A stretch of DNA of 52,923 nucleotides from Acidobacteriota bacterium. Its GTDB lineage: Bacteria; Acidobacteriota; Thermoanaerobaculia; Gp7-AA8. The stretch spans positions 1-52,923 of the forward strand of contig JBDTOZ010000740.1 in the NCBI GenBank assembly GCA_039932995.1, written 5' to 3'. Positions 1 through 52,891 of this stretch are shown here, piece by piece. Position 1 is the first letter of the stretch, and each line of letters starts with the position of its first letter. The position numbers and the translations under genes are program-made. The notes under the pieces were generated by a model. It had not been told where the DNA came from, ran no database searches, and saw nothing but the letters and a program-made list of their open reading frames with translations.

Positions 1-64
1 ACCAGCAACCAGCAACCAGCAACCAGCAACCAGCAACCAGCAACCAGCAACCAGGAACAGCAAC
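1..64. repeat. tandem heptamer array (ACCAGCA)x7 plus degenerate units, ending 5 nt before the rsmH ATG
   Basis: Perfect 7-nt periodicity over 1-49, degenerate over 50-63. It probably forms the 3' arm of a hairpin whose 5' arm lies outside the window. Confidence 0.9.
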
Positions 65-69
65 TCCAG

Positions 70-990
70 ATGACACACGAACCTGTTCTTTTAAGCGAAG
101 TGATGAGGCTCCTCGAGCCCAACCGTCCGGACGGCGTGATCGTCGACGCAACGGTGGGGCTGGGCGGACACGCGGAAGCGCTACTGGAGCGCCATTCCGA
201 GGTCCGCTTGATCGCCATCGACCGCGATCCTGAGGCGCTGGAACGGTCGCGGGTGCGGCTGAGCCGTTTTCCGGGCCGGGTGACGTTCGTGGGCGGACGT
301 CATGAATCGCTCATTGACATCCTGAAGCAGTGCGGCACGGAGCGCATCAGCGGTCTGCTGGCCGACCTGGGCGTCTCCTCGATGCAGCTCGATGATGCGG
401 CGCGTGGCTTCTCGTTTCGTTTCGAGGGGCCGCTGGACATGCGCATGGGCTCCGAGGGGAGAAGCGCGGCGGACCTGGTCAACGAGCTGGATGAGTGGGA
501 GCTGATGCGGATCATTCGCGAGTATGGCGAGGAGCCGATGGCTCGGCGGATCGCGGCGGCGATCGTGGCGGCGCGGGTGGAAGAGCCCATCACGACGACG
601 GCGAAACTCGCGGAGGTCATTCGCGGCGTGAAGAAAGCCCGCTACCACGAGATTGACCCGTCGACGCTCACCTTTCAGGCACTTCGGATCGCCACGAACG
701 AGGAGCTGATCGGTCTGGACCGGTTCGTCGACGATGCGGTGAGCGTTCTGGAAAATGGAGCGCGCGTGGGCATCATTGCCTTCCACTCCTTGGAAGACCG
801 GATCGTCAAGCGCGCTTTCCGCCGGCTCGCCGGTGAGTGTACCTGCCCGCCCAACATGCCTGTTTGCGGATGCGGGGCGACGCAGTCGGTGAAGGTTCTG
901 ACCGGAAGGCCGGTCACTGCTTCAGAAGAAGAGATGCAACGCAATCCGCGGTCGCGCAGTGCCAAGTTGCGCGTCGCGGAGCGGGTCTAG
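70..990 (+). CDS. rsmH: 16S rRNA (cytosine1402-N4)-methyltransferase RsmH/MraW
   Basis: 306-aa ORF with VGLGGHAEALL and DLGVSSMQLD motifs typical of RsmH. It is the first gene in the canonical dcw order. Confidence 0.95.
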   Translation: MTHEPVLLSEVMRLLEPNRPDGVIVDATVGLGGHAEALLERHSEVRLIAIDRDPEALERSRVRLSRFPGRVTFVGGRHESLIDILKQCGTERISGLLADLGVSSMQLDDAARGFSFRFEGPLDMRMGSEGRSAADLVNELDEWELMRIIREYGEEPMARRIAAAIVAARVEEPITTTAKLAEVIRGVKKARYHEIDPSTLTFQALRIATNEELIGLDRFVDDAVSVLENGARVGIIAFHSLEDRIVKRAFRRLAGECTCPPNMPVCGCGATQSVKVLTGRPVTASEEEMQRNPRSRSAKLRVAERV

Positions 991-1157
991 TTGCTGGTTG
1001 CTGGTTGCTGGTTTCTTGCGGAGGCGCGCGAACAACCAGCGACCAGGAACCAACAAAGTGAAGTTACCAGGCCGCCTGGTGTGAGTTGTTGACTGTCGCG
1101 AGGCTCTCCGGTCGGAGATCCAGCCCGCAGACAACCAGCAACCAGCAACCAGCAACG
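990..1157. repeat. CAACCAG-class composite hairpin: one 5' arm (GTTGCTG)n with two alternative 3' arms
   Basis: 5' arm 990-1021. Proximal partner 1031-1056, imperfect. Distal partner 1125-1156, whose reverse complement matches the 5' arm at 29 of 32 positions. Confidence 0.85.
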
Positions 1158-1368
1158 ACGAAGTGGACGAAGTCGACGAGCAAGGGTGAAGGTTGGGGAA
1201 GGGTTGGGCGTGTGTGTGATGCGGGAGCTCGGGAGGGGTGGAGCGTGGGGTGTGGGCGCGTGTGGATGGCTTCTCGAATCATGCTAGCAGGCAGATCTTC
1301 ACCCTTGTTCGTCGGCTTCGCGCGCGGCACCGGCAGGTGTCGGGTAAGGAACGTTTCAGTCCCCGGTC

Positions 1369-1743
1369 ATGTACACGCAGAAGAAACCCATCGACAACAC
1401 TCACATCGTCCGCGAGAGGGATCGCCGGCGAAACCGTGAGCTCTTTGCCGTCCTGTCCCTCGGCATTCCGATCGGTCTCTTCCTGCTTCTTTTCACCTGG
1501 CAGAACCTCGAGGTGATCCGCCTCGGCCGCGAGGCCACGCGGCTGCAGCGAGACCTCAAGGACGTCGAGGCCCGGCACAAGGCCCTGCAGGCGGAGCTCG
1601 ACCGCAGGACTTCGTTCGATGCCGTGGAAAAGAAAGCCTCTGCGCTCGGCTTCCAGCCCACGGACGCGAAGACCATCGTGCTGGTCGAGCCGGCCGCCAA
1701 CCGCCAATCGCCAGCCACCCATCCGGAAAGCGGAGCGCACTGA
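1369..1743 (+). CDS. ftsL: cell division protein FtsL-like
   Basis: 124 aa. One TM helix (LFAVLSLGIPIGLFLLLFTW) followed by a coiled-coil-like LQRDLKDVEARHKALQAELD. The stop overlaps the ftsI ATG (1741-1745). Sits between rsmH and ftsI. Confidence 0.7.
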   Translation: MYTQKKPIDNTHIVRERDRRRNRELFAVLSLGIPIGLFLLLFTWQNLEVIRLGREATRLQRDLKDVEARHKALQAELDRRTSFDAVEKKASALGFQPTDAKTIVLVEPAANRQSPATHPESGAH

Positions 1744-3683
1744 TGGCGATCTCTCATCGCCGTCTCCTGCAAGTCTTCGCGCTGCTGGCTGCCTGGGGCC
1801 TGATCGTCGTGGGCCGTCTGGCCCAGGTGCAACTCGTGCGGCACGAACACTACGTGACGCGCGCGCAACGGCAGCAGGAGCGCACGCTGGCACTCAATCC
1901 CGTTCGAGGCTCGATTCTCGACTCCCGAGGGCGCGTGCTCGCGGAGAGCATCGCCGCGGAATCGATCTATGCGGACCCGCAGATGATCACCGATCGCCGC
2001 GGCGTGGCCCGCGCTCTGGCGAAGGTGCCGGGCATCGGTCTCACCGCTCGCGACATCGAGACCCGGCTTCGCGCCAACAACAGCTTCGCCTGGATCGCGC
2101 GCCAGCTTCCCCTGGAGACGACCGCGGAAGTGCGCAAGCTGAAGCTCAACGGGATCTATTTCCTGGAGGCGCACCGGCGCAGCTATCCCCGGGCGACGCT
2201 TGGAGCGAACGTCATCGGCTATGTCGGCATCGACGGTGACGGGCTGAGTGGCATCGAGCATACCTTCGATAGCCAGGTGAGGGGCACGCCCGGCAAAGTC
2301 ACGCTGCTCAAGGATGCGCGCCGAGGCATGTACCTGCTCGGCGGAGACGGAGCAAACCGTCCGCGGGACGGCGGTCATGTCGTGCTGACCATCGACACCG
2401 TGGTCCAGTTCATCGCCGAGCGCGCCCTGAATGGCGCGATGGAGCGTTATCACGCCGGCGGCGGGTCGGTGATCGTCATGGATCCGAACAACGGCGACAT
2501 CCTGGCCATGGCCTCCGCCCCCTCGTTCGACCCGAACCATTTCCGCGACTTTCCCCCGGTGTCGTGGAAAAACCGCAATGTGCAGGACACCTACGAGCCG
2601 GGTTCGACATTCAAGATCGTCACCGCGGCCGCAGGTCTCGAGGAGCGGCTGGTCACTCCCTCCCAGGTCCTCGACTGCGGCAACGGCTCCATCACTGTCG
2701 CCAACATCACCATCAATGAGCACGACGGACATCGCTACGGTCTGCTCACCTTCGAAGACGTCATCGTCAACTCCTCGAACGTCGGGACAGTCCGGGTCGG
2801 TCTGGCCCTTGGGCAGGATCGTTTTTACGATTGGATCCGGCGCTTCGGCTTCGGCGAGAAGACAGGCATCACGCTTCCCGGCGAATCGGCCGGGCAGCTC
2901 CGCGGACCGCAGCGCTGGACGCAAGTTTCCCCGGCCAGCATCTCCATCGGCCAGGAGATCGCCGTGACTCCTCTGCAGATCGTGCGGGCCGTGAGCGCCG
3001 TGGCCACGGGAGGACTGCTCGTCGAGCCACGCATCGTGAAGAGGGTGATCGACGACGAAGGGAAGACCGTCTACGAGCCACCCCGTCAGGCGGCGAAGCG
3101 GGTCATGTCGGAAAAGACCGCGGCCGTGCTGAACGAGATTCTCAAGAACGTCGTCTCGCGCGGGACCGGCGAGCACGCGGCCCTGGCCGAGCACGTGGTG
3201 GCGGGCAAGACCGGGACGGCCCAGAAGGCCGTCGGCCGCATGGGATACATCGACGGCCGCTACGTCGGGTCGTTCACGGGCTACGTGCCGGCCGATCGCC
3301 CCCGGCTGGCCATCCTGGTCGTCATCGACGAGCCGCATGGGGAGTATTACGGCGGCACGGTGGCCGCGCCGGTGTTCCGCGAAGTGGCCGAGGGGACCTT
3401 GCGATACCTGGGTGTTCCCCCCTCGCGGCCTTCCCGATCGATCGACGTCTCGGAGCCGTTACTGGCCGCATTCTCGCAACCTGCTGCACCAGCCGGTTCG
3501 ACCTCGGGCGTGCCTGACTTGCGAGGGCTCGACGCGCGTGCGGCGGTGGCCCGTGCAGTGTCGCGCGGGTTCGTCGTTCGGACCATTGGAAGCGGAGTGG
3601 TGACCTCACAAGATCCTCAACCAGGCGGAGCTGCATCCGTGGACCGCAGAATCATGACCTTGCGGCTGGAGGCGCGCGGATGA
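1743..3683 (+). CDS. ftsI: class B penicillin-binding protein (division transpeptidase FtsI) with C-terminal PASTA-like domain
   Basis: SxxK (GSTFKIV), SxN (NSSNVG) and KTG (AGKTGTA) motifs, plus an N-terminal TM. The C-terminus VPDLRGLDARAAVARAVSRGFVVRTIGSGVVTSQDPQPG looks like a PASTA domain. Confidence 0.9.
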   Translation: MAISHRRLLQVFALLAAWGLIVVGRLAQVQLVRHEHYVTRAQRQQERTLALNPVRGSILDSRGRVLAESIAAESIYADPQMITDRRGVARALAKVPGIGLTARDIETRLRANNSFAWIARQLPLETTAEVRKLKLNGIYFLEAHRRSYPRATLGANVIGYVGIDGDGLSGIEHTFDSQVRGTPGKVTLLKDARRGMYLLGGDGANRPRDGGHVVLTIDTVVQFIAERALNGAMERYHAGGGSVIVMDPNNGDILAMASAPSFDPNHFRDFPPVSWKNRNVQDTYEPGSTFKIVTAAAGLEERLVTPSQVLDCGNGSITVANITINEHDGHRYGLLTFEDVIVNSSNVGTVRVGLALGQDRFYDWIRRFGFGEKTGITLPGESAGQLRGPQRWTQVSPASISIGQEIAVTPLQIVRAVSAVATGGLLVEPRIVKRVIDDEGKTVYEPPRQAAKRVMSEKTAAVLNEILKNVVSRGTGEHAALAEHVVAGKTGTAQKAVGRMGYIDGRYVGSFTGYVPADRPRLAILVVIDEPHGEYYGGTVAAPVFREVAEGTLRYLGVPPSRPSRSIDVSEPLLAAFSQPAAPAGSTSGVPDLRGLDARAAVARAVSRGFVVRTIGSGVVTSQDPQPGGAASVDRRIMTLRLEARG

Positions 3684-5158
3684 AACTCGCCGACCTCCTC
3701 AACGGCGTGCCGGTCCGCGAGCTCCGCGGCGACACCGAAGTCGAGATCACCCAGGTGACGCCCGACTCGCGTCTGGTTACTCGCGGCTCCCTCTTCGTGG
3801 CCATTCCGGGAACCGCGAAGGACGGCACGGCCTTCATCCCTCAGGCCGTGCAGCGCGGCGCGGCGGCCATCGTCATGGCGGGCTCGCATTCGACCGACAC
3901 TTCGCCATCGACCACGGTCATCACCGATGATCCGCGCGCCGCCCTTGCAGTTCTCGCGGCCAACTTCTATGGGCGTCCGGCTGACCACCTCTCGCTGGTC
4001 GGGGTCACCGGCACGTCCGGCAAGACCACCACCGCCCGGATGATCGAGTCGGTGTTCGACGCTCCGGTGAACGGCGTGTCCGAGCCCGTCGGTCTCATCG
4101 GCACCATCGAATACCGGGCCGGAGACGAGAAGCTGATGGCCGACCGCACCACTCCGGATGCGGTCGTCCTGCAGGGCTGGTTCTCCAAGATGGTCCGCGC
4201 CGGCGTGAGGCACGCCGTCATGGAAGTGTCCTCGCACGCTCTGGCCCTCAAGCGGACTTTCGGAATCCATTTTGCGGCGGCCGTTTTCACCAATCTCTCC
4301 CGCGAGCACTTCGACTTCCACAAAGACTTCGAAGACTACTTCGCGGCCAAGCGCATCCTCTTCGACCAGATCGACCGCACCCGTCAGACGGCGGTCGTCA
4401 ACATCGACGACGAATACGGCCGGCGCCTTGCCGCGGAACTGGGACCGGGCGCGATGACCTTCGGCCGCGCAGGAGACATTCGTCCCGGCGCCGACCTGGC
4501 CATCACCGTGGAAGGGCTGCACGGGACGGTGCACACACCGCGGGGCGATGTGCGCATGGAGTCGACGCTGCTGGGCTTGCCGAATCTCTACAACTGGATG
4601 GGGGCCATCGGCGCCGCTCTGGTCGTGGGAATCCCCATCCCGCGCATCGAGGACGGCATTCGGAACCTCCAGTCCGTCCGCGGCCGCTTCGAACGGGTGG
4701 GCGCGACGGCGCCGACGGTGATCGTCGACTACGCACACAAGCCCGATGCCCTGGAAAAGCTCCTGCAGGCGGTTCGGGAGATCGCCGGTGAACGGCGGGT
4801 GACGGTGGTCTTCGGGTGCGGGGGTGATCGGGACCGCGGCAAGCGTCCGCAGATGGGGGAGATCGCCTCGCGTCTGGCCGACCGTGTGGTCATCACCAGC
4901 GACAACCCCCGCAGTGAGGAGCCGCAGTCGATCATCGACGAGATCAGGAAGGGGATCACCGGCACGAACGCGATCACGATCGCGGACCGCCGCGAGGCGA
5001 TCGCCCGGACCATCGCCGAGGCCCAACCGGAGGACGTGATCGTCATCGCCGGCAAGGGTCACGAAACCTATCAGGTCATCGGCGACGACGTCGTCCACTT
5101 CGACGATCGCGAAGAGGCAGAATTCGCGATTAAAAAGCAGCACGGAAAAGCATCTTGA
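3680..5158 (+). CDS. murE: UDP-N-acetylmuramoyl-L-alanyl-D-glutamate--2,6-diaminopimelate ligase
   Basis: Mur ligase P-loop GVTGTSGKTTT and the MurE-type DNPRSE motif. ATG 3680 overlaps the ftsI TGA (ATGA). Confidence 0.95.
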   Translation: MKLADLLNGVPVRELRGDTEVEITQVTPDSRLVTRGSLFVAIPGTAKDGTAFIPQAVQRGAAAIVMAGSHSTDTSPSTTVITDDPRAALAVLAANFYGRPADHLSLVGVTGTSGKTTTARMIESVFDAPVNGVSEPVGLIGTIEYRAGDEKLMADRTTPDAVVLQGWFSKMVRAGVRHAVMEVSSHALALKRTFGIHFAAAVFTNLSREHFDFHKDFEDYFAAKRILFDQIDRTRQTAVVNIDDEYGRRLAAELGPGAMTFGRAGDIRPGADLAITVEGLHGTVHTPRGDVRMESTLLGLPNLYNWMGAIGAALVVGIPIPRIEDGIRNLQSVRGRFERVGATAPTVIVDYAHKPDALEKLLQAVREIAGERRVTVVFGCGGDRDRGKRPQMGEIASRLADRVVITSDNPRSEEPQSIIDEIRKGITGTNAITIADRREAIARTIAEAQPEDVIVIAGKGHETYQVIGDDVVHFDDREEAEFAIKKQHGKAS

Positions 5159-5184
5159 TATTCAATATGAAAATCGCTTACTAT
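5155..5184 (+). promoter_or_regulatory. sigma70-like promoter candidate at the murE stop (-35 TTGATA, 18-nt spacer, -10 TACTAT)
   Basis: AT-rich island in GC-rich DNA. It shares the TTGATATTCA and CTTACTAT blocks with the ftsZ-proximal candidate at 15676-15704. Confidence 0.5.
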
Positions 5185-5468
5185 TACGGGGTTCCGGCTC
5201 CGTCGGCCGGTTTCGGCGAGGGTGGACGGTGGGGTTTCGCCAGGCAGTTCTCGGGGAAGGGGACGAGCAATGGCGACGAAACGCGGCGGAGCCGGACGTT
5301 TCTGTTGGCAGGTCGCAGCGGGCAGTCGGCTGGAGGCCGCGGCCCGCTCCTCGAGCAACGTTCAATCAGGAACCCGGCCAGCTCCCCATCGACCAACTGT
5401 CGATTTTCGGCTCGTCGGGCAGAGGAGCCTGCCAACCGCCAGGCGCCAACCGCCGACTGGGGAACGCC

Positions 5469-6836
5469 ATGCCCACGCTGACCTTCACCCAGCTCGCCGA
5501 AATGATCGGCGGCACTGTCATTCAGGGCGGTGGCGTCGAGAGCTCCTCGGTGGTCATCGACTCGCGCGAAGTCCGGCCGGATTCGGTGTTCTTCGCCATC
5601 AAGGGCGATCGCCTCGACGGTCACGCGTTTCTGCCGCAGGCGTTGACCACGGCGCGGGGCGCGGTGGTCACGCAGGTGCCGGAGCAGACGGACAAGGCCA
5701 TCGTGCAAGTGGCCGATACGACCGTCGCCCTGCAGCGACTGGCCAGTGCCATTCGCGACCGCTTCCCCTTCCTGCTCATCGGCATCACCGGCTCCGCGGG
5801 GAAGACCACCACCAAGGAGATGATCGCCACGCTGACGGCCACCGAGCGCGCCACGCACAAGTCGTGGGGCAATTTCAACAACCAGATCGGCGCGCCGCTT
5901 TGTCTCGACAACATGCCCGACGGGGCGCAGGTGGTGGTCAGCGAGATGGGGATGAACCACGCCGGTGAGATCGCCGAGATCGCCGGTCTGATGCGTCCCG
6001 ACGTGGGCGTCTACACGAACATCGCTCCCGTGCACATCGAGTTCTTCGGCACGATCGAGAAGATCGCCGCTGCCAAGAGGGAGCTGCTCGAGAATCTCGC
6101 ACCGCAGGGGATCGTGGTCGTGAACAACGACAACGAGCATGTGGTGCGCATCAGCAGCGACTACGACGGGCCCAAGGTGTCCTATGGCATCGAGCATGAG
6201 GCGGACTATCGCGCGACGAACATTCGTGAGCGCGGTCTGCTGGGAACGCGCTTCACCCTGCAGGCCGAGGATGCGACGCGCGAGCTCGAGCTCGTGCTCC
6301 CGGGACGGCACAACCTCGACAACCTGCTGGCGGCCATCGCGGCCGCGCGAGCGGTGGGCATCTCGTGGGAGGGCATCGAGCGCGGCGTGCGCGAGGTGAA
6401 GCCCGCCTATCACCGCGGCGTGATTCTTCCGTGGCGTGGCGCGACCCTCTACGACGACACGTACAACTCGAATCCGTATGCGCTGGGCCGGACGCTGGAG
6501 TTGATGGCCCAGGCCGAAGCAGCCGGCCGGCGCATCGCGGTGATCGGCGACATGCTCGAGCTGGGAGAGCAAGAGCTCGCGTTTCATCGGGAGGCCGGAC
6601 GGGCCATCCCGAAAGCGATCGATGTCGTGGTGGGCGTGGGGAGACGTTCGCGGACCCTGCTCGAAGGTGCGCTGGAGGCGGGATTCGCCGCCGGCGCGTT
6701 GCACCACTTCGAGGATGCCGCCGGTGCCGGACGGTTCCTGGCAGGAGAGATCCGCCCAGGGGATCTCGTGTTGCTCAAGGGGTCTCGCGGCGTCGGACTC
6801 GACAAAGCGGTGGCCCTGCTGGAGGAGTCGCAATGA
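5469..6836 (+). CDS. murF: UDP-N-acetylmuramoyl-tripeptide--D-alanyl-D-alanine ligase
   Basis: The track ORF begins at 5229, but a MurF-like N-terminus (MPTLTFTQLAEMIGG) begins at ATG 5469. P-loop GITGSAGKTTTKEM. The upstream extension lies in repeat-rich non-coding DNA. Confidence 0.9.
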   Translation: MPTLTFTQLAEMIGGTVIQGGGVESSSVVIDSREVRPDSVFFAIKGDRLDGHAFLPQALTTARGAVVTQVPEQTDKAIVQVADTTVALQRLASAIRDRFPFLLIGITGSAGKTTTKEMIATLTATERATHKSWGNFNNQIGAPLCLDNMPDGAQVVVSEMGMNHAGEIAEIAGLMRPDVGVYTNIAPVHIEFFGTIEKIAAAKRELLENLAPQGIVVVNNDNEHVVRISSDYDGPKVSYGIEHEADYRATNIRERGLLGTRFTLQAEDATRELELVLPGRHNLDNLLAAIAAARAVGISWEGIERGVREVKPAYHRGVILPWRGATLYDDTYNSNPYALGRTLELMAQAEAAGRRIAVIGDMLELGEQELAFHREAGRAIPKAIDVVVGVGRRSRTLLEGALEAGFAAGALHHFEDAAGAGRFLAGEIRPGDLVLLKGSRGVGLDKAVALLEESQ

Positions 6837-6885
6837 CCCGGTCCTTCGTTCCCCGTTCACCCTTCATCGTTCGGGAGAGTGCCTG

Positions 6886-7974
6886 ATGCTGTACTACCTC
6901 CTCTTCGAGCTGCGCGACGTCTTCGTCGGCTTCAACGTCTTTCGCTACATCACCTTCCGGACGGCGTTTGCCGCTCTCACGGCCCTGCTCATCTCGCTGG
7001 TGCTGGGGCCGTGGCTGATCGAGCGGATGCGCCGCATCAAGCTCGGCCAGTACATTCGTGAGGAGGGGCCGAAGTCGCACCAGGCCAAGGCCGGCACGCC
7101 GACGATGGGGGGCATCCTCATCAATGTGGCCATCATCATCCCGACCATCCTCTGGGCCGACATCCGCAATCCGTACATCTGGATCGTGCTGTTCGTCACG
7201 GCGGCCTATGCCGCGATCGGGTTCGTCGACGACTACCGGAAGCTGGCCAAGAAACGCAATCTCGGTCTCACGCCGGCCGAGAAATTCGGCGCGCAGTTCA
7301 CGGTGGCCTTCCTGGCGGGAGCGGCCATCGCCTATCTGCCGATGCTGAAGAACAACTACTCCACGGCCATCACCTTTCCGTTTCTCAAGGACGTCACCCT
7401 CGATCTCGGACCGGTGTACATCCTCTTCATCGCGGTGATCCTGGTGGGAACGTCCAACGCCGTCAATCTCACCGATGGGCTGGACGGGCTGGCCATCGGC
7501 TCGGTGCTCGTGGCCGCTGTGACGTACACCGTCCTCACTTACGCGGCCGGGCACGCCCGCATCGCGGAGTACCTGCGCATCGCCTGGGTTCCGCAGACCG
7601 GAGAGCTGGCGGTGTTCTGCGGGGCCATGGTGGGGGCCTCGCTGGGATTCCTCTGGTTCAACGCGCACCCGGCGGAGATCTTCATGGGCGACGTTGGCTC
7701 GCTGGCTCTGGGCGGCGCGATCGGCTGTGTGGCCGTGACCATCAAGCAGGAGCTGCTACTCGTGCTGGTGGGCGGTCTGTTCGTCCTGGAGGCGCTGTCG
7801 GTCATCCTGCAGGTGGCGTCGTTCAAGATCACCGGCCGGCGCATCTTCAAGATGTCGCCGTTGCATCACCACTTCGAGCTTTCAGGTTGGAAGGAGACCA
7901 AGGTCGTCGTGCGGTTCTGGATCATCGCCATCATTTTCGCGATGGTCTCGCTGGCCACTTTGAAACTGAGATGA
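6886..7974 (+). CDS. mraY: phospho-N-acetylmuramoyl-pentapeptide transferase
   Basis: ATG 6886 (MLYYLLFELRDVF) preceded by GGGAGAG. NAVNLTDGLDGLA and PLHHHFE motifs. Polytopic membrane protein. Confidence 0.95.
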   Translation: MLYYLLFELRDVFVGFNVFRYITFRTAFAALTALLISLVLGPWLIERMRRIKLGQYIREEGPKSHQAKAGTPTMGGILINVAIIIPTILWADIRNPYIWIVLFVTAAYAAIGFVDDYRKLAKKRNLGLTPAEKFGAQFTVAFLAGAAIAYLPMLKNNYSTAITFPFLKDVTLDLGPVYILFIAVILVGTSNAVNLTDGLDGLAIGSVLVAAVTYTVLTYAAGHARIAEYLRIAWVPQTGELAVFCGAMVGASLGFLWFNAHPAEIFMGDVGSLALGGAIGCVAVTIKQELLLVLVGGLFVLEALSVILQVASFKITGRRIFKMSPLHHHFELSGWKETKVVVRFWIIAIIFAMVSLATLKLR

Positions 7975-8230
7975 GTCTTCGAGTCTTCGAGTCTTCGAGT
8001 CGTCGCGCCTGCAGTCGTCGGGTCGTTTTCATCGATGGAGTCTCACAGTCTCATAGGCTCACAGTCTCATAGACGCCGGAGCCAACGACACCTATGAGAT
8101 GAGACTCGACGACTCGACGACTCGACGACCCGAAGACTTGACGACTTGACGACCCGAAGGCCCGACGACCCGAAGACCCGAAGACTTGACGACTCGAAGA
8201 CTCGACGACCCGAAGACTCGAAGACTAGAC
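7973..8230. repeat. nested octamer-unit hairpin element, copy 1 (mraY-murD gap)
   Basis: Left outer arm (GAGTCTTC/GAGTCGTC)n and inner arms (TCTCACAG/TCTCATAG)n. The long right arm holds about 16 GACTCGAC/GACCCGAA/GACTTGAC octamers. The core is shared with 39151-39226. Confidence 0.9.
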
Positions 8231-8239: not shown

Positions 8240-9553
8240 ATGAGCAAGACCCTGATCATAGGAGCAGCGAAATCCGGCGTGGCCGCGGCGAACTTTCTGG
8301 CGGCACGTAGGGAGTCCGTCATCCTGGCGGACAAAGCGATCCAGCCGTCGCTTCCTTACGCACTCGACGAGCGCGTGCAGCGGGCCTTCGGACGCGACGA
8401 CGCCGCTCTCCTCGATCAGGTCTCGCAGGTCGTGCTCAGTCCCGGTGTGCCGATGACACTGCCCTTGCTGCAGGAAGCGTCGTCGCGTGGGATCCCGGTT
8501 CTGGGCGAGATCGAGCTCGCTTACCGGCACCTCGAGGGCACGGTCATCGCCATCACGGGATCGAACGGCAAGTCCACCACCACGGCGCTCATCGGCGAGA
8601 TTCTGAAGGTGGCCGGCCGGCAGCCGATCGTGGCCGGCAACATCGGCGAGCCGCTGATCGCAGCGCTCGATCAGGAACGTGCACGGAACTACGTCGTCGA
8701 GCTCTCCTCCTTTCAACTGGAGGGAGTGGACACGTTTCGGGCGAACGTAGCCCTGTTGCTCAACGTGACGCCCGACCACATGGACCGTTATGCGACTTTC
8801 GACGCCTACGCCGCGGCGAAGGACCGGATCTTCCGCAACCAGCAGTCCGGAGACACGGCCATCGTGAACGCCTCCGAGCGGCGCGATTCCTCGCATGCTG
8901 GCGGAGTCCGGCCGTGGCGCTTTTCCGCCAGCCAGGTCGTCGAGGACGGCGCCTGGCTCGACGGCGACATGATGGTGATGTCCGTGGGGAGTGAAGAGCG
9001 CCGCATCCCGCGCACCTCCCTGCGGCTCCAGGGGACGGCCAATGTCGAGAATGCACTGGCGGCGTGGCTGGCCGCCCGGGCCGTGGGTGTCAGCGATGCG
9101 GACGTGCAGACTGCTTTCGGCACGTTTGCGGGACTGCCGCACCGGATGGTGCCGGTCCGCGACCGCAACGGCGTGCATTGGGTCAACGACTCCAAAGGAA
9201 CGAACGTCGATGCCACCTTGAAGTCGCTGGAGGGTTTCGCGGCGGGGAGCGTCCTCCTCATCCTGGGAGGCAAGGACAAGGCCGGCGAGTTCGAGCGGAT
9301 GCGCGAGCTGGTATCCGCGAAGGCCCCGATCGTTCTGACCATTGGATCGGCAGCGGACAGGATCGCCGCCGCATTGCAAGGTGCCACTGAGATCGTGGCC
9401 GCCGGCGATCTCGGCAAGGCCGTGCAGTGGGCCGGCCAGAACGCGAAGCCCGGGCAGACCGTGCTCCTTTCCCCCGCGTGCGCGAGCTTCGACCAATACC
9501 GCAATTTCGAGCATCGCGGCGAGCACTTCGAAGAACTGGTGAGGGCGTTATGA
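8240..9553 (+). CDS. murD: UDP-N-acetylmuramoylalanine--D-glutamate ligase
   Basis: ATG 8240 (MSKTLIIGAAKSGVAAANFL) and ITGSNGKSTTT. The in-frame upstream extension from 8186 lies inside the octamer repeat array. Confidence 0.9.
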   Translation: MSKTLIIGAAKSGVAAANFLAARRESVILADKAIQPSLPYALDERVQRAFGRDDAALLDQVSQVVLSPGVPMTLPLLQEASSRGIPVLGEIELAYRHLEGTVIAITGSNGKSTTTALIGEILKVAGRQPIVAGNIGEPLIAALDQERARNYVVELSSFQLEGVDTFRANVALLLNVTPDHMDRYATFDAYAAAKDRIFRNQQSGDTAIVNASERRDSSHAGGVRPWRFSASQVVEDGAWLDGDMMVMSVGSEERRIPRTSLRLQGTANVENALAAWLAARAVGVSDADVQTAFGTFAGLPHRMVPVRDRNGVHWVNDSKGTNVDATLKSLEGFAAGSVLLILGGKDKAGEFERMRELVSAKAPIVLTIGSAADRIAAALQGATEIVAAGDLGKAVQWAGQNAKPGQTVLLSPACASFDQYRNFEHRGEHFEELVRAL

Positions 9554-9555
9554 AC

Positions 9556-9712
9556 GGTTGCCGGTTGGCGGTTGGCAGTTGGCGGGAGCGACGTGGCAAC
9601 GCGCAGCTCCGTCCCGCAACGAGCGACGCGTCATCCCAGTCGTCATCCCGCCAGGCGTCATCCCGCCAACCGCCATCCCGCCAACCGTCAACCGCCAACC
9701 GCCAACCACCCA
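9556..9712. repeat. GGTTGGC/GCCAACC-class heptamer hairpin (murD-ftsW gap)
   Basis: 5' arm 9556-9585 (GGTTGCC GGTTGGC GGTTGGC AGTTGGC). 3' arm GCCAACC units at 9665-9707, interleaved with GTCATCCC units. It ends 9 nt before the ftsW ATG. Confidence 0.9.
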
Positions 9713-9716: not shown

Positions 9717-10811
9717 ATGAGCAGAAAACTGACCTACGACACCTGGCTCTTCTCCATCGCGACGCTGATCGTGGTGGTGGGCCTGGTCATGATCTACAGC
9801 GCCTCGGCGATGATCGCCACGCAGCGCTTCGGGCATGGGCCGTATTACTTTCTCATCCGCCAGGGCGCGTTTCTCGTGGCCGGCGCCCTGCTGACCGTGT
9901 TTCTCATGCATCTCAATCCGGCGGTGCTCCAGGACAAGCGGGTGCTGTATGGCGGTCTGGGAGTCGTGGCTCTGGGGTTGATCGTGGCGCTGTTTCAGTC
10001 GCCGATCAATGGAACGCACCGGTGGATCGCCCTGCCGTGGTTCCACCTCCAGCCCTCGGAGTTCGCCAAGCCGGCCATGATTCTCTTTCTGGCGTCGTTT
10101 CTCTCGCGACGAGAGGAGCGGATCAACGACGTGACCACCACGTTGCTGCCGATGGGATTCATGCTCTCCCTCTTCGCGGGCCTGATTCTTCTGGGCCGCG
10201 ACTTCGGGACGGCGACGACTCTGCTCCTGGTGGCCTGCGGGATGATCTTCGCGGCAGGGTTGTCGTGGCGCATCATCGCCGTGGTCGGTCTGGCCCTGGT
10301 TCCGACGGCGGGCTACCTCGTGCTCAGCGCGGCCTACCGGCGCGAGCGTCTGCTCACATTTCTCAATCCCGAGTCCGATCCGCTCGGGGCCGGCTTTCAG
10401 CCGATGCAGTCGCTGATCGCCCTGGGCACGGGCGGCTTCCAGGGTTTGGGCATCGGGAACGGACGACAGAAGCTCTTCTTTCTCCCGGAACCGCATACCG
10501 ATTTCATCTTCTCCATCATCGGCGAAGAGCTTGGGTTCCTGGGGGCTGTGCTGCTGCTGGCCGCGTTCGCTCTGCTCGTGTGGCGCGGGTACCGGATCGC
10601 ACGATTCAGTCAGAACCGTTTTGCGTTCTACGCCGCCCTCGGCTGCACGCTCATGATCGCCATCCAGGCATTGGTCAACGTCAGTGTCACGCTCTGTCTT
10701 TTGCCGACGAAGGGAATCCCTCTGCCGCTGGTGAGTTATGGCGGGTCGTCCCTTCTGGTCAGTCTCATCGCGGTGGGACTGCTTCTGAATTTTTCGCAGC
10801 AATCGGGATAG
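9717..10811 (+). CDS. ftsW: SEDS-family peptidoglycan glycosyltransferase FtsW
   Basis: ATG 9717 (MSRKLTYDTWLFSIATLIVV). SEDS motifs LQPSEFAKPA and LPTKGIPLPLVSYGGSS. The track ORF start at 9558 lies in the heptamer array. Confidence 0.9.
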   Translation: MSRKLTYDTWLFSIATLIVVVGLVMIYSASAMIATQRFGHGPYYFLIRQGAFLVAGALLTVFLMHLNPAVLQDKRVLYGGLGVVALGLIVALFQSPINGTHRWIALPWFHLQPSEFAKPAMILFLASFLSRREERINDVTTTLLPMGFMLSLFAGLILLGRDFGTATTLLLVACGMIFAAGLSWRIIAVVGLALVPTAGYLVLSAAYRRERLLTFLNPESDPLGAGFQPMQSLIALGTGGFQGLGIGNGRQKLFFLPEPHTDFIFSIIGEELGFLGAVLLLAAFALLVWRGYRIARFSQNRFAFYAALGCTLMIAIQALVNVSVTLCLLPTKGIPLPLVSYGGSSLLVSLIAVGLLLNFSQQSG

Positions 10812-10833
10812 GGGATGGGTGTGATGGGCGGAC

Positions 10834-10987
10834 AGTTGGCGAATGGCGGTTGGCGGTGGGCGGTGGACGCCGCGACCTGTTGCGTGCTCGCGCAACAGCA
10901 CCGGACATTCGCAGCCTGCCGCGTGCAATCCCGTCACGCGACGCGTGCCGACCTTCTCCGCCAACCGCCAACCGCCAACCGCCAAGC
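10834..10987. repeat. GGTTGGC/GCCAACC-class heptamer hairpin (ftsW-murG gap)
   Basis: 5' arm 10834-10868. Inner hairpin CTGTTGCG...CGCAACAG at 10877-10898. 3' arm (GCCAACC)x3 plus GCCAAGC at 10960-10987, abutting the murG GGAGG. Confidence 0.9.
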
Positions 10988-10996
10988 GGAGGCCCA

Positions 10997-12079
10997 ATGA
11001 CCACACTCCTGATTGCCGGAGGTGGTACCGGTGGCCACATTTACCCGGCCATCGCCATTGCCGGCGAATACGTGCGGCGTGATCCCGCCCGACGGGTCGT
11101 GTTCGTCGGCACGGAGAAGGGACTCGAAAAGCAGATCGTGCCGAAGGCGGGATTCCCGCTCGAGTTCATCGACGTCGGCGGCCTGAAAGGAAAAGGCGGC
11201 CTCGATCTGATCCGCAACATCCTGCGCGTCCCGAAGGGATTCGTGCAGGCCTGGCGTCTCATCGGAAAGCATCGCCCTGATGTGGTGCTGGGCGTGGGTG
11301 GCTACTCGTCCGGTCCCGTGCTCGTGGCCGCGAAGCTGCGGGGCGTGCCGACCATCATCCACGAGGCCAACGCGTTTCCCGGTCTCGCCAACCGTGTCGT
11401 GGCCCGCTTCGTGACCGCCGTGGCCGTGGCCTTCGACGAAGCCCTGCCGCGTCTGAAACGGAAAGACGGAGTGGTCACCGGCAACCCGATCCGTCAGGAG
11501 TTTTTCGAAGCGACCCGCGAGCAGCCGGCCGGCGATCTGAAACGGCTGCTGATTTTCGGCGGTTCCCAGGGCTCACGCATCCTCAACGACACCATGACCG
11601 GCGCGCTGCAGTTTCTCGCGCCGCTGCAGCGCACGTTGGAAATCGTTCATCAGACCGGACCGGCCGAATTGGAGAAGGTGCAGATCGCTTACCGCCAGTC
11701 CGCTTTTCCGGGCGCCCGCGTCGTTCCCTACCTCGATCCCATCGTGGACGAGATCGCGAACGCCGATCTGGTGGTCTGCCGGGCCGGAGCCATGACCATC
11801 GGCGAGCTTTGCGCGATCGGCCGCGGGGCCGTCCTCGTTCCTTTTGCCGCGGCCACGAACAACCATCAGGAGCTGAACGCGCGCGTCGTGGAGCGGGCTG
11901 GCGGCGCCGTGGTCATCACCGAATCCGGCCTTTCCCCGGAGCAGTTGGCCTCGGCCGTCACCGAAATTCTCAGCGATCCCGAACGGGCCGCGCGCATGGG
12001 CGGAGCGGCCAAAACCCTGGCCTTGCCGCTGGCTACGAAAAACATTGTCGATTTGATCGACAAAATCGAGAGAAATTAA
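10997..12079 (+). CDS. murG: UDP-N-acetylglucosamine--N-acetylmuramyl-(pentapeptide) pyrophosphoryl-undecaprenol GlcNAc transferase
   Basis: ATG 10997 preceded by GGAGG (10988-10992). G-loop GGTGGHIYPA. The 835-aa track ORF from 9572 is an artefactual upstream extension. Confidence 0.92.
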   Translation: MTTLLIAGGGTGGHIYPAIAIAGEYVRRDPARRVVFVGTEKGLEKQIVPKAGFPLEFIDVGGLKGKGGLDLIRNILRVPKGFVQAWRLIGKHRPDVVLGVGGYSSGPVLVAAKLRGVPTIIHEANAFPGLANRVVARFVTAVAVAFDEALPRLKRKDGVVTGNPIRQEFFEATREQPAGDLKRLLIFGGSQGSRILNDTMTGALQFLAPLQRTLEIVHQTGPAELEKVQIAYRQSAFPGARVVPYLDPIVDEIANADLVVCRAGAMTIGELCAIGRGAVLVPFAAATNNHQELNARVVERAGGAVVITESGLSPEQLASAVTEILSDPERAARMGGAAKTLALPLATKNIVDLIDKIERN

Positions 12080-17021: not shown

Positions 17022-17033
17022 ATGCTGTCATCC

Positions 17034-36472: not shown

Positions 36473-36483
36473 TTCAGACGAGG

Positions 36484-38629: not shown

Positions 38630-39043
38630 TTGACCGTATCCGGAATCGCCCCGAAGTGGGATGAGCCTGCGATCCGCGTGCTGATGATGCCGCGGGATAC
38701 GAACGCGCACGGCACGATCTTCGGCGGCGTGATCCTTTCGTACATCGACCAGGCCGGCGCGATCGAAGCGCGCCGGCAGGGTCTGCACTTCATGGTCACC
38801 GTGTCGATGGACAAGGTCGTGTTTCACGAGCCTGTCTTCGTCGGCGACCTGGTGAGCTTCTGGACCGAGACCCTGCGTATCGGAACCACCTCGATCACGA
38901 CAAAAGTCGTGGTCGAGGCCATCCGTGCCGGAGATCCCAAGCAGCGGGTCACCGTGACCGAGGCGCACGTGGTCTACGTGAATATGGGGCTGGACGGGAA
39001 GAAGGCGACGATCCGGCGCGAGACGAACGCGTACGACGAGTAG
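38630..39043 (+). CDS. acyl-CoA thioesterase (hot-dog fold, YciA-like)
   Basis: [28 protein letters not shown] motif. The TTG start lies directly after the ppiD stop. Confidence 0.8.
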
Positions 39044-39358
39044 TCTTCTTCCTTCGTCTTCGTCTTCGTCTTGTCGTCTTGTCGCCAAGTCGCCAAGTCG
39101 CCAAGTCGTCGAGTCGCCAAGTCGTCGAGTCGTCGAGTCGTCCATTTTCGTCGATGGAGTCTCACAGGCTCATAGGCTCATAGGCTCACAGTCGCATAGA
39201 CGCCTGGGCCAACGACACCTATGAGACTGTGAGACTGTGAACCTATGAGACTTCGTGGCGCCTGAGGGGACACTCGACGACGCGAAGACTCGACGACTCG
39301 ACGACGCGAAGAAGACGGGAAGACGCGAAGAAGACCCGACGACTCGAAGACGAGAGGA
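39044..39358. repeat. nested octamer-unit hairpin element, copy 2 (thioesterase-rarA convergent gap)
   Basis: Left arm (GTCTTC/GTCGCCAA/GTCGTCGA)n and inner arms (CTCACAGG/CTCATAGG)n versus (CCTATGAG/ACTGTGAG)n. Right arm (ACTCGACG/ACGCGAAG)n. Core blocks are identical to copy 1. Confidence 0.9.
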
Positions 39359-40733: not shown

Positions 40734-40782
40734 TGGGCAGGTGGCAGTGGGCAGGCCGCGGTGGGAAGCGGGCAGGAGCCGT
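40734..40782. repeat. heptamer-periodic array (TGGGCAG GTGGCAG TGGGCAG GCCGCGG TGGGAAG CGGGCAG) with no obvious inverted partner
   Basis: 7-nt periodicity is visible in the 84-nt gap between the threonine dehydratase stop and the rarA start. Confidence 0.75.
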
Positions 40783-43460: not shown

Positions 43461-43487
43461 AAAAAGCCCGGCGATTGCCGGGCTTTT
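43461..43487. terminator. bidirectional intrinsic terminator after the Ig-like repeat gene
   Basis: AAAAA-GCCCGGC-gatt-GCCGGGC-TTTT. Confidence 0.8.
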
Positions 43488-43492
43488 CATTT

Positions 43493-43628
43493 GTTGCTGG
43501 TTACTGGTTACTGGTTACTGGTTGCTGGTTGCTGGTTACTGGTTGTCTGCGGTTTCTGGCCTTGGCAGTTTCCGGAGTGCGGTCCAGGCGACGAACCGCA
43601 GACAACCAGCAACCAGCAACCAGTTAAC
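43493..43628. repeat. CAACCAG-class heptamer hairpin with unequal arms (8 versus 4 units)
   Basis: Left arm (GTTGCTG/GTTACTG)x7 + GTTGTCT + GCGG over 43493-43552. Right arm CCGCAGACAACCAGCAACCAGCAACCAGTTAAC over 43596-43628. Confidence 0.9.
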
Positions 43629-50813: not shown

Positions 50814-50835
50814 GCGGGTTCGCATCGTTCGACGA

Positions 50836-50866
50836 AGCCCCGGCGCCAAGCCGGGGCTTTTTCTTT
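50836..50866 (+). terminator. intrinsic terminator after the TonB-dependent receptor gene
   Basis: AGCCCCGGC-gccaa-GCCGGGGCT followed by TTTTTCTTT. Confidence 0.8.
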
Positions 50867-50984
50867 GACGCCCGCTCCGCCCCGGACGCCGGAGTAGAAT
50901 TCCGGCGGCGTTCCTGCAACGAAGGTTCCCCTAGGATGGATCCGCGATGAAGAAGAAGCCGGGTCCGTCTCCCGATCTCTGACG

Positions 50985-52724
50985 ATGGCCGGTATTTTCG
51001 ATAGCGTAGTCGACCCGAACGTGCAGGCACTGCTGCGGCGTGAGCAACGTCTGCTGGTCGAGCTGCGCGAGACGTTCGAGCACGAGCAGGCCGACGAACG
51101 TCGCCGCGTCGAGGATCTGCTCGCCACACTCGAGGATCTGTTCACGATCGTGGTGGTCGGCGAGTTCAACGCCGGCAAGTCGTCGCTGATCAACGCCCTC
51201 TTCGGTGAGAAGCTTCGCGTGGAAGGTCCGATCCCGGTCGACGATGTCATCTCGGTCCTCCGCCACGGCGAACAGGCCACCCAGAAGCGTCTGTCCGATT
51301 ATGTGGTCGAGCAGTCTTATCCGGTCGAGTTCCTGCGGAACATCACCTTGGTGGACACTCCCGGCACCAACTCCATCGTGCAGCGGCATCAGGAGATCAC
51401 CGAGGACTACATCCCCCGGGCGGACCTGATCCTGTTCGTGACCTCCATCGACCGGCCGCTCTCGGAGTCCGAGCGGCGCTTTCTCGAGTACATCCGCGAG
51501 TGGGGCAAGAAGGTCGTCTTCGTGCTCAACAAGATCGATACGAAGAGCGAGGAAGAGGTCGCGCAGGTGGTCGAGTATCTGACGACCCATGTGCGGGCCA
51601 TCTTCGGGTTCGATCCGGTCATCCATCCGGTGGCGGCCAAGCCGGCGCTGGAGTCGAAGCTGGGCAACGCCTCCCCGCGCGAATGGACGCGCAGCCGTTT
51701 CGAAGCCCTCGAGGACTACATCTTTCACGTGCTCTCGGAGAAGGAGCGCGTGCGCATCAAGCTCACCGCCCCCCTGGACGTCATCGTCAGCCTGGCCAAA
51801 AAGCAGTTCCGGATGATCGAGTCGCGCCGGGAAGTGCTGGCCACGGACAAGGTTCGCATCGACGGGATCAACGATCAATTGGAGAGAGCCCGGGCCGATC
51901 TGGCGGGCAACTTCCGGCAGTTCGTCGTGCGCATCGATAACCTGCTGCTGGACCTGGAGCGCCGCGGCCTGGAATTTCTCGACCGCTACGTGCGCATCCA
52001 GCACGTGATGATGCTCCGCGATGCCTCGCGTTTCCGCGAGGAGTTCGAACGGCAGGTGTTCCAGGGCTGGAAGGGGAACATCGACACGACCATCCAGGAA
52101 GCGGTGGATTGGCTGGTGAAGGAGAACCTCAAGCTCTGGAATGGGACGGTGGATGCGTTCCACCGGCGCGCCGAGGCGGACGCCAAGAATGACGAGGTCA
52201 TCGGACGCGTGGGCCGGGAGTTCGCCTACAACCGGGAAGAGGTCTACGCCCGCATGCGCCGCAACGCGGAGCAGCGACTCTCCTCGTACGACGTGAATGT
52301 GGAGAGCCGCCGCATCATCGACAACGCCATGCGCGCCGTCCTGCACTCGTTCGGCCTCGGCGCCGGAGCACTCGGTCTCGGCTACCTGCTCACCACCGCG
52401 GTCAGCAGCACCGCCGTGGACGTGACCGGCCTCACCGCCGCGACCATGCTCCTCGTGACCAGCTTCCTCATCCTTCCGTACAAGCGCACCAAGGCCAAAG
52501 AAGAGTTCCGGCGCCGGATCGAGGAGCTCCGTACGCACCTGCAGGAATCGCTCGACCGCGAGTCCACCATCGAGATCGACCGCATGCTTCGGGGCATCAC
52601 CAGCGCATTCGAGCCCTACCAGCGTTTCTACGCCGCCGAATCCGAGAAGATCGAGCGCTTTGCCGAAAAGCTCACGAAGATCGAAAAGGAAACCAACGAG
52701 ATCATGGCGTTAGCGGGGGTGTGA
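50985..52724 (+). CDS. bacterial dynamin-like GTPase
   Basis: G1 GEFNAGKSSLINAL, G3 DTPGTNS and G4 LNKID. Hydrophobic paddle GLGAGALGLGYLLTTAV...LTAATMLLVTSFLILPY near the C-terminus. Confidence 0.85.
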   Translation: MAGIFDSVVDPNVQALLRREQRLLVELRETFEHEQADERRRVEDLLATLEDLFTIVVVGEFNAGKSSLINALFGEKLRVEGPIPVDDVISVLRHGEQATQKRLSDYVVEQSYPVEFLRNITLVDTPGTNSIVQRHQEITEDYIPRADLILFVTSIDRPLSESERRFLEYIREWGKKVVFVLNKIDTKSEEEVAQVVEYLTTHVRAIFGFDPVIHPVAAKPALESKLGNASPREWTRSRFEALEDYIFHVLSEKERVRIKLTAPLDVIVSLAKKQFRMIESRREVLATDKVRIDGINDQLERARADLAGNFRQFVVRIDNLLLDLERRGLEFLDRYVRIQHVMMLRDASRFREEFERQVFQGWKGNIDTTIQEAVDWLVKENLKLWNGTVDAFHRRAEADAKNDEVIGRVGREFAYNREEVYARMRRNAEQRLSSYDVNVESRRIIDNAMRAVLHSFGLGAGALGLGYLLTTAVSSTAVDVTGLTAATMLLVTSFLILPYKRTKAKEEFRRRIEELRTHLQESLDRESTIEIDRMLRGITSAFEPYQRFYAAESEKIERFAEKLTKIEKETNEIMALAGV

Positions 52725-52748
52725 ACGCGCTGAGCGTCGAGTGAAGGA

Positions 52749-52891
52749 GCCTCGGCGGCGAGACGCCGCCGGGCCAGCCGGCGGGACGCCAGCGTTCCGA
52801 GAAGCAGCGTTCCGAGGCGCCGTTCCGGCAGCGTCTCCGCGGGAGCGCCGGCGTCTCGCCGGCTGGCCCGGCGGCGTCTCGCCGCCGAGGC
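52749..52891. repeat. 42-bp inverted repeat (41/42 complementary) with a 59-nt spacer containing direct repeats
   Basis: GCCTCGGCGGCGAGACGCCGCCGGGCCAGCCGGCGGGACGCC (52749-52790) versus GGCGTCTCGCCGGCTGGCCCGGCGGCGTCTCGCCGCCGAGGC (52850-52891). The spacer carries AGCGTTCCGAG twice. Confidence 0.9.

Follow-up and report, generated by a model that had tools for sequence, protein, structure and literature searches.

Paired tandem-heptamer hairpins at gene junctions of the dcw and mre operons in a soil acidobacterium and its relatives

Tandem repeats of seven or eight nucleotides that face each other as opposed pairs have been reported from other bacteria. In Geobacter metallireducens, Aklujkar et al. 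(2009) described three classes of site consisting of three to five tandem octa- or heptanucleotides, paired on opposite strands at a variable distance (GTTGCTYN, 24 pairs; TCTCCGTS[Y], 21 pairs; MTYCTGA, 8 pairs), which were called 'global regulator binding sites' and put forward as untested targets of IHF or HU; insertion sequence (IS) elements lie at a fixed distance from the tandem sites (PMC2700814). Rehm et al. (2015) counted 70-75 convergent, intergenic (GGGAATC)~4 pairs in Xanthomonas with the G-rich arm first, positioned nearer to the upstream open reading frame (ORF; 28 nt on average) than to the downstream one and varying in length between species at conserved positions (PMC4692102). 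Here we describe tandem-armed hairpins at gene junctions, including those of the dcw and mre operons, in a 52.9-kb stretch of DNA from a soil acidobacterium (contig JBDTOZ010000740.1; 63.6% G+C, Thermoanaerobaculia-like), which in its full length is referred to below as the window. An earlier note on this sequence could match the arrangement to no described family, but the Geobacter and Xanthomonas sites show that the hairpins are a new phylum-level case of an already known, little-studied kind of repeat. We read ten of them as 'palindromic microsatellites', palindromes kept at the level of DNA by slippage, arm-to-arm copying and occasional dispersal, and give this reading a probability of roughly 55%.

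The resemblance to Geobacter metallireducens lies in the paired, opposite-strand tandem units, in the presence of several classes, with dozens of copies there, and in intergenic positions that include junctions within operons (proB-proA); the first Geobacter class, GTTGCTYN, also resembles the GTTGCTG class of the window. G. metallireducens belongs to a different phylum, however, and polarity, stop-codon abutment and turnover were not analysed there. The Xanthomonas pairs are likewise convergent, G-rich arm first and mostly of four units, but they comprise one unit class selected for G-quadruplex potential, whereas most units of the window (GTTGCTG, GGTTGGC, GAGTCGTC) cannot form a G-quadruplex. 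The same paired architecture was seen in loci fetched from a gammaproteobacterium, Steroidobacter and Flavisolibacter. Similar unit sequences recur in unrelated phyla, as in Steroidobacter GCGGTTR/CCAACCG (L049, 18990-19095; L numbers denote fetched loci) and Geobacter GTTGCTYN, a likeness that could stem from convergence or from horizontal spread. In the open-access literature we found no systematic treatment of such paired repeats and nothing on Acidobacteriota.

Other systems share single traits with the hairpins. At Haemophilus influenzae hmw1A, one arm of a hairpin in the 5' untranslated region (UTR) consists of a transcribed (ATCTTTC)n array, and cleavage by RNase III affects both expression and change in repeat number (PMC12721329). 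No other mechanism for such a structure has experimental support. The heptamer array in a hairpin arm is common to both, but only the stem length (~30 bp) and the operon position fit here; hmw1A is a single phase-variation locus, its array lies in a 5' UTR, and the other arm is a G-rich region rather than a reverse-complement array. Among long simple repeats in prokaryotes, heptamers show the strongest over-representation, which has been ascribed to polymerase slippage, according to work cited in PMC4692102 and PMC4679880. The TAACTGA repeats of the Beggiatoaceae form 169 direct sets against one indirect set in a Beggiatoa genome (PMC4679880). Both these and the short tandemly repeated repetitive (STRR) sequences of heterocystous cyanobacteria are, like the repeats described here, intergenic tandem heptamers that often lie just 5' of start codons, but they are essentially direct arrays with fixed units in other phyla. 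The STRR units presumably differ from GTTGCTG, GGTTGGC and GAGTCGTC, and with an acidobacterium as host we take the hairpins to lie outside that family. Like repetitive extragenic palindromic (REP) sequences, their hairpin-forming doublets (REPINs) and the REP-associated tyrosine transposases (RAYTs) that go with them, the tandem-armed hairpins are intergenic, hairpin-forming, multicopy and arranged as inverted doublets. Membership in the REP/REPIN group is ruled out, since each arm is a direct tandem array with no internal 20-40-nt imperfect palindrome.

The window carries a complete dcw cluster on the + strand, with rsmH (70-990), ftsL, ftsI, murE, murF (5469-6836), mraY (6886-7974), murD (8240-9553), ftsW (9717-10811), murG (10997-12079), murC, ftsQ, ftsA and ftsZ (15720-17021), and an mreB-mreC-mreD-mrdA-rodA operon on the - strand (34890-29260). 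Its nearest genomes in a species-level collection are soil metagenome-assembled genomes (MAGs) labelled Thermoanaerobaculia or Acidobacteriota, with MurD identities of 68-77%, and the top nucleotide identity to any fetched relative is 82%. Gene order is kept in 34 relatives. Short-read contigs of the same species are present in three sequencing runs. Of the window's own genome 53 kb were examined; counts of copies and classes come from a pooled set comprising the window and 44 related loci (783 kb, 91% coding according to a codon-usage gene caller).

Ten of the 14 loci listed as hairpins in the earlier note were confirmed as such by sequence reading, Tandem Repeats Finder and an inverted-repeat search; each is a tandem run of 7- or 8-nt units, followed by an interior of 12-160 nt and then by a run of the reverse complement. 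All ten fold with an RNA energy beyond that of dinucleotide shuffles (z -4.3 to -8.5, n = 10), and the five that were folded with DNA parameters gave z values from -2.5 to -7.7.

Five of the hairpins lie in dcw. A GTTGCTG/CAACCAG hairpin (990-1157; RNA z -8.0) begins in the rsmH stop codon and has 32-nt arms (990-1021 and 1125-1156) that are 91% complementary. The gap between mraY and murD is filled by an octamer GAGTCKTC/GACGACTC hairpin (7973-8230; RNA z -7.0), whose inner core (8039-8100) is itself built of AGTCTCAY octamers; the 5' arm has about 4-6 units and the 3' arm (8103-8230) has 16, a copy number known from one assembly alone. A GGTTGGC/GCCAACC hairpin (9555-9712; RNA z -8.5) fills the gap between murD and ftsW, and a GTTGGCG/CCGCCAA hairpin (about 10834-10987 in the stretch 10825-10996; RNA z -4.9) occupies that between ftsW and murG, ending 9-11 nt 5' of the murG ATG; MurD and FtsW are each flanked by two hairpins. 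An octamer hairpin of GAGTCGCC type (15591-15666; RNA z -4.3) lies directly 3' of the ftsA stop codon and is followed by a promoter-like site of ftsZ.

In the mre operon, where the genes are on the - strand, a GTTGCTG-class hairpin (32297-32364; RNA z -5.7) fills the gap between mreD and mrdA, and a GTTRCTG-class hairpin (33776-33863; RNA z -4.7) lies 2 nt past the mreB stop codon, upstream of a conserved mreC leader. The remaining three are outside these operons. A GGGCGCA/CTGCGCC hairpin (36484-36550; RNA z -5.8) separates two divergent genes and lies 12 nt before the start codon (ATG) of one of them, 35045-36471 on the - strand; an octamer hairpin (39044-39358; RNA z -6.7) extends from the stop codon of a thioesterase gene to that of the convergent rarA gene and fills the whole gap; and a GTTACTG/CAACCAG hairpin (43493-43628; RNA z -8.0, DNA z -7.7) lies between convergent genes beside a separate terminator (43463-43490).

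Three other listed loci are single arms. Locus 1-64 is a C-rich arm of the GTTGCTG/CAACCAG class, ACCAGCA repeated 9.3 times, that ends 5 nt before the rsmH ATG at 70 and does not fold alone (z +0.8); since the C-rich arm is all that is present at the window's edge, the partner arm must lie upstream of the window, and in an orthologous locus (L003) both arms are present upstream of rsmH. Locus 5431-5455 on the + strand, before murF, is a weak remnant of two spaced GCCAACC units without a partner (z -0.6 for RNA, +0.5 for DNA), at a position where relatives have full hairpins. Locus 40734-40782, also on the + strand, is a degenerate GGGCAGN run with no inverted partner (z +0.7 for RNA, -0.4 for DNA). 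The last listed locus, 52749-52891, is a REP doublet and is treated further below. The statement that arrays fill almost every intergenic gap was too strong: the gaps between murF and mraY (49 nt) and between murG and murC (54 nt) have no array, and neither does most of the 310-nt gap between murE and murF, which contains a promoter-like site plus a leader. The distances of 5-14 nt given between the 3' arms and the next start codons are correct, but the suggestion that arrays displace the Shine-Dalgarno sequence is not supported, as about half of the window's genes have no such motif regardless of arrays and both murF and murG keep one after the arm (GGAGG in the case of murG).

A family can have members at several places in one genome. 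The GTTGCTG-class copies in the window have in common the clamp TCTGCGG/CCGCAGA, as the earlier note had reported; relatives with the same unit class do not have it, so that the clamp is a property of this genome's copies and not of the class. Two octamer elements 31 kb apart, 7973-8230 and 39044-39358, agree at about 90% of positions over a common core of about 100 nt (39135-39255 region) and differ in their outer arms. Repeat families are copied or homogenised within one genome. The octamer core and (GGTTGCT)2.5 are nearly absent among 90 loci, and a metagenome scan with the 18-mer GCCAACGACACCTATGAG taken from the octamer core returned 67 loci, none sharing the core by blastn, which indicates chance matches.

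Arrays were also noted outside the intergenic hairpins. A GCCAACC-type array (1694-1713) sits within the poorly conserved 3' end of the ftsL ORF, and in a relative (L007, about 3546-3652) the ftsL frame traverses the 5' arm of a (GAAGGCA)n hairpin and has its stop codon in the loop, suggesting that tolerant C-terminal tails can absorb arms. Between rsmH and ftsL there is a non-tandem inverted repeat (1168-1320) with 24-nt arms, 92% complementary, around a stretch that is very rich in G and poor in C (about 1185-1265). Motifs of methylation type are found in several unit classes (GANTC in GAGTCGTC and AGAGTCKT, GATC in AGAGATC and AGCGATC; units from window loci 7973-8230 and 39044-39358 and from L013, L018, L027, L028 and L082), but most classes have none and we take this to be coincidence.

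The non-coding nature that the earlier note had deduced from periods of 7 and 8 nt is borne out by the pooled loci. In 783 kb, arrays of period 7 number 44 in coding and 137 in intergenic DNA and those of period 8 number 14 and 43, whereas the coding and intergenic counts are 54 and 2 for period 6, 125 and 16 for period 9, and 104 and 6 for period 12. The density of period-7 arrays is roughly 30-fold higher in intergenic DNA. When a hairpin is defined as two arrays with reverse-complement units within 300 nt, the pooled loci contain 62, of which 50 have period 7, ten have period 8 and one each has period 9 and period 10. In an earlier locus set inverted pairs outnumbered same-orientation pairs by 44 to 4. 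Pairing of arrays is not automatic, since 27 (GGTTGCT) arrays of at least three units in viral contigs included none with an exact inverted partner within 300 nt.

These hairpins follow a narrow set of rules. Arm length is sharply peaked, with 4.0-4.5 units in 45 of 116 arms and a median of 30 nt or 4.1-4.2 copies, and the spacer between arms has a median of 31 nt (10th-90th percentile, 14-77 nt). The 5' arm is G-rich in 50 of the 62 hairpins, C-rich in 4 and neutral in 8, and among 17 pairs from other phyla, 14 have a G-rich 5' arm. Because reverse-complementing a palindrome keeps the G-first property, this polarity is intrinsic and independent of strand. Among 46 co-directional hairpins, 33 start within 15 nt of the upstream stop codon, 20 of these between 5 nt before the end of the stop codon and less than 5 nt after it, and in 40 one end lies no more than 15 nt from where a gene ends; in several cases the unit begins with the stop codon's last base. 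Occupancy is similar for all junction types (co-directional, 43 of 501 or 8.6%; convergent, 6 of 55 or 10.9%; divergent, 3 of 47 or 6.4%), and no depletion was seen at the 47 divergent junctions. Searches of Rfam gave no match at gathering thresholds.

Mismatches in the stems record how units change. Pairs of mismatches lie at multiples of the period more often than expected (87 of 349 against 48.8; p 7e-8), indicating that a unit variant spreads along one arm and is not mirrored in the other; in one locus (L073), for example, (GGCTGGA)4 faces (CCTACAG)4. By type, 40 mismatches are G.U, 46 are A.C and 92 are of transversion type, so that the excess of G.U over A.C that would be a sign of selection on the sense RNA is absent (p 0.59). 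The earlier note had taken unequal arms as evidence of slippage. The periodic mismatches, together with a one-unit difference between strains, do point to tandem-repeat dynamics, but the inequality itself has no direction (3' arm longer in 13, 5' arm longer in 9, similar in 23; p 0.19), and for this reason a role of a longer 3' arm as a single-stranded CA-rich leader was rejected. A role as intrinsic terminators was also rejected: a T-rich tail (at least 6 T in the 12 nt past the 3' arm) follows only 3 of 58 hairpins, and canonical terminators occur elsewhere in the window. Relative to previous notes on single genomes, the rules that are new are the G-first polarity, the arms of about 30 nt, the abutment on stop codons, the turnover of units at fixed positions and the homogenisation of one arm.

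Orthologous junctions reveal both the insertion of the hairpins and the turnover of their units. The junctions mraY>murD and murD>ftsW are mostly 4-nt ATGA overlaps; in other relatives they contain a tandem-armed hairpin of 60-280 nt with ATGA(G) on both sides. This agrees with the proposal in the earlier note that the arrays are insertions into tightly coupled operons, and the comparison shows the hairpins to be insertions into permissive non-coding slots, which run from close to the upstream stop codon to just short of the next start codon or leader. At murD>ftsW the -4 overlap is found in 17 relatives, and the units of the hairpins found elsewhere are GGTTGGC in the window and L003, CTCTCGG (L005), GTGCTGC (L007), GTGGCCG (L008), GTGTCAG (L009), CAGCGAT (L013) and GCGCGGTT (L021). 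At the mreD>mrdA junction some relatives have a gap of 6 nt, others a remnant of one unit and others a full hairpin. Among genomes with an identical MreB, a hairpin starts 0-9 nt past the mreB stop codon in 10 of 10, with a conserved mreC leader (about 45 nt) behind it. The mreB>mreC hairpin is tandem-armed in 9 of the 10 distinct genomes, with units of 7, 8, 9 or 10 nt that include GGTTRCT, GTTGCCS, GGTTGTC, GGTACGA, AGAGTCKT (8 nt), ATAGGACRA (9 nt) and GAGTTCCTCG (10 nt). The GAGTCKTC octamer persists in places, at mraY>murD in the window and L011 and in the rarA/thioesterase gap in the window and L090. By this comparison the insertions are old and are retained in place while their units drift.

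Comparison within the species showed variation between strains. Independent assemblies reproduce 32297-32364 and 33776-33863 exactly, one (L158) being 100% identical and another (L159) differing by three single-nucleotide polymorphisms, all in genes. Hairpin 36484-36550 is unchanged in L190 and L191, which cover window positions 34649-39133, and the arms of 990-1157 are reproduced in L160 and L161 (window 25-8001). Over 7.9 kb, L160 differs from the window at 24 positions, all within 1020-1138, the interior of hairpin 990-1157; there, L160 has unrelated sequence in place of about 80 nt and one unit fewer in its 3' arm. No donor for the alternative interior was found within the window. Two further loci (L082 and L086) are identical and carry no information on variation. 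Same-species short-read contigs end inside the arrays at 1-64, at 7973-8005 and at about 39130, in the 5' arm of 39044-39358, as is expected of short reads at real repeats; as a consequence, the copy numbers of the longest arrays lack an independent check. Look-ups of the exact MurD, RarA and FtsW proteins had no hit, and neither MurD nor FtsW is recorded as a complete gene, likely because short-read contigs break at the flanking arrays. The arrays add in this way to the fragmentation of MAGs.

Several lines of evidence favour an origin and maintenance of the hairpins at the level of DNA: a period typical of slippage, homogenisation within arms, no signature of an RNA strand, equal occupancy of junction types, an interior rewritten between strains and growth until coding constraint. 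The junctions compared also show hairpins that keep their place from one species to the next as their unit sequences are replaced. That arms stay complementary despite this turnover needs either selection or arm-to-arm copying. Under the reading as palindromic microsatellites, replication slippage would add, remove and homogenise units within an arm, in keeping with the bias of prokaryotes towards heptamers. Template switching between the arms of the quasi-palindrome would keep them complementary and extend them outward until coding constraint is reached, breakage and repair at the palindrome centre would rewrite the interior, and occasional copying to new sites would spread a family. Where transcribed within the dcw and mre operons, the hairpins would form intercistronic double-stranded stems of about 30 bp, without the U-tracts of intrinsic terminators, which are plausibly substrates of RNase III or blocks to 3' exonucleases. 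Processing of the stems might then segment the polycistronic mRNA and tune the relative expression of neighbouring genes.

A number of observations weigh against this interpretation. Neutral slippage predicts neither the G-rich-first polarity (50 against 4) nor the narrow peak of arm length at about 30 nt nor the hairpin after mreB in every one of 10 genomes despite complete turnover of the unit, all three being possible signs of selection or of a dedicated generator. Between strains, three of the four hairpins compared are unchanged, so the hairpins are not uniformly hypervariable. For dispersal, neither a consistent target-site duplication nor an associated transposase was found in the window or at the compared loci. 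Template switching is our inference, and RNase III cleavage and the effect on expression are hypotheses.

The hairpins occupy junctions of the most conserved operons in abundant, mostly uncultured soil bacteria. They would mislead prediction of gene starts and operons, and could serve as strain markers. The comparative rules make the origin and function of bacterial heptamer repeats testable.

The alternative that survives best, which we nonetheless regard as improbable, is that the hairpins are selected RNA elements, stem-loops that would set the stoichiometry of operons (for example, more MreB than MreC and MreD) by RNase III cleavage, by protection of 3' ends or by restored coupling, with the units tuning stem length. 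The constancy of the hairpin past the mreB stop codon through all the turnover of its units is what this idea would predict, as are the starts close to upstream stop codons in 33 of 46 cases and stems whose length, about 30 bp, suffices for RNase III. The heptamer hairpin of H. influenzae hmw offers a precedent, in that its cleavage by RNase III affects expression (PMC12721329). G-first polarity also leaves the C-rich arm never unpaired during transcription, and a C-rich arm transcribed first would possibly expose a Rho-loading site, which may explain the polarity. Should the stems prove to be processing sites, the uncoupling of genes in polycistronic mRNAs by this route would be common and evolvable. 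The stems themselves argue otherwise, for they show no excess of G.U over A.C in the sense strand and tolerate periodic uncompensated mismatches. The hairpins are also equally common in divergent gaps, where they are presumably untranscribed or 5', match no Rfam family, and are missing from any given dcw junction in many relatives, so that no single site is essential.

It is rather unlikely that the hairpins are non-autonomous mobile elements, similar to miniature inverted-repeat transposable elements or REPINs, whose arms would be terminal inverted repeats moved by a transposase encoded elsewhere in the genome. Movement would account for the same class with a genome-specific clamp at 4-5 loci of the window and for the common core of the two octamer elements; a RAYT with its own REPs is present in the clade, and in Geobacter IS elements lie at a fixed distance from such sites (PMC2700814). 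ATGA(G) is doubled on both sides of hairpins at formerly overlapping junctions, but viability needs the duplication there anyway, and outside the ATGA junctions no direct repeats flank the hairpin copies and no target-site duplication is consistent. The window holds no hairpin-associated transposase, and the sole RAYT found has GGCGGCGnnnCGCCGCC REPs on its flanks instead of heptamer arms. Variation in arm length and unit is continuous, and the drift of units at fixed orthologous positions suits vertical descent better than repeated insertion.

A doubtful possibility joins propagation to function: the hairpins would be self-propagating DNA that spans phyla and has a dedicated generator, with the 7-nt step, the arm of about 30 nt and the strand-symmetric G-first polarity as its footprint, and would be exploited as tunable intercistronic processing sites that set the protein ratios of mreBCD and dcw. 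The candidate mechanism would be repair synthesis, of snap-back or repeat-adding type, after the hairpin has broken at its centre; a candidate alternative would be an expansion that depends on transcription and RNase III, as at H. influenzae hmw. Head-to-head telomere fusions have the same G-first polarity.

We consider it quite unlikely that the hairpins are DNA-binding or structural sites, for IHF or HU, for gyrase or for cruciform extrusion, that act as topological or regulatory insulators. Comparable binding or structural hypotheses exist for REP sequences and bacterial interspersed mosaic elements. The presence of hairpins in all junction types, divergent ones included, and the lack of an RNA-strand signature are compatible with such a role, which was the earlier hypothesis for Geobacter (PMC2700814). 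Against a sequence-specific protein stands the near-arbitrary unit sequence across loci and genomes; the binding is putative only, and the 7-nt step is off the helical repeat of DNA.

That the hairpins are assembly artefacts of repetitive reads is highly improbable: short-read contigs do break in the longest arrays, and the 8103-8230 arm and both arms of 39044-39358 have no second assembly, but this check, which the earlier note had raised, finds four hairpins reproduced base for base in independent same-species assemblies from other runs and the same architecture at the same junctions in dozens of MAGs of unrelated projects, including long-read chromosomes.

The REP doublet at 52749-52891, which the earlier note had counted among the tandem-armed loci, has 50-nt arms, 94% complementary (z -11.3), that are not composed of tandem units; each of the two inverted arms contains the small palindromes GGCGGCGAGACGCCGCC and GCCGGCGGGACGCC, as in a REPIN. 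In a relative (L083, 853-1577), a gene for a 180-aa protein with a Y1_Tnp domain (988-1530; PF01797, E 3.8e-8) lies at the homologous site, 3' of the orthologous gene for a dynamin-like GTPase, and has inverted copies of GGCGGCGnnnCGCCGCC and GCCGGCGnnnCGCCGGC on its flanks; both arms of 52749-52891 are built from these motifs. The motif is also dispersed in L031, L084 and L085, and tblastn found no Y1_Tnp homologue in the window. By its motifs the doublet is classed as a member of a classical REP/RAYT family, with no RAYT in the window, distinct from the tandem-armed hairpins. A link of the latter to RAYTs was rejected, as the RAYT of L083 is bracketed by GGCGGCGnnnCGCCGCC motifs and not by heptamer arms.

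A few further features of the window were recorded. Two near-identical sigma-70-like matches (TTGATA, 17-18-nt spacer, TACTAT) lie within dcw, just past the murE stop codon (5155-5184) and just before ftsZ (15676-15704), the only + strand matches in 18 kb. Canonical intrinsic terminators, a GC stem followed by a T-run, are found after ftsZ (17112-17154) and after a Big_7 gene (43463-43490); the position of the first implies that ORF 17022-18335 really starts near 17190. The longest ORF of a GT2 glycosyltransferase gene on the - strand (19884-21263) has an N-terminal stretch matching the DUF772 transposase domain, which may be an IS remnant, and codon usage places the start at 20912. Also on the - strand, and adjoining guaA, 24785-26524 encodes a 579-aa protein with a C-terminal Peptidase_S74 domain (endosialidase chaperone, tail-fibre type), whose position is kept in several relatives.

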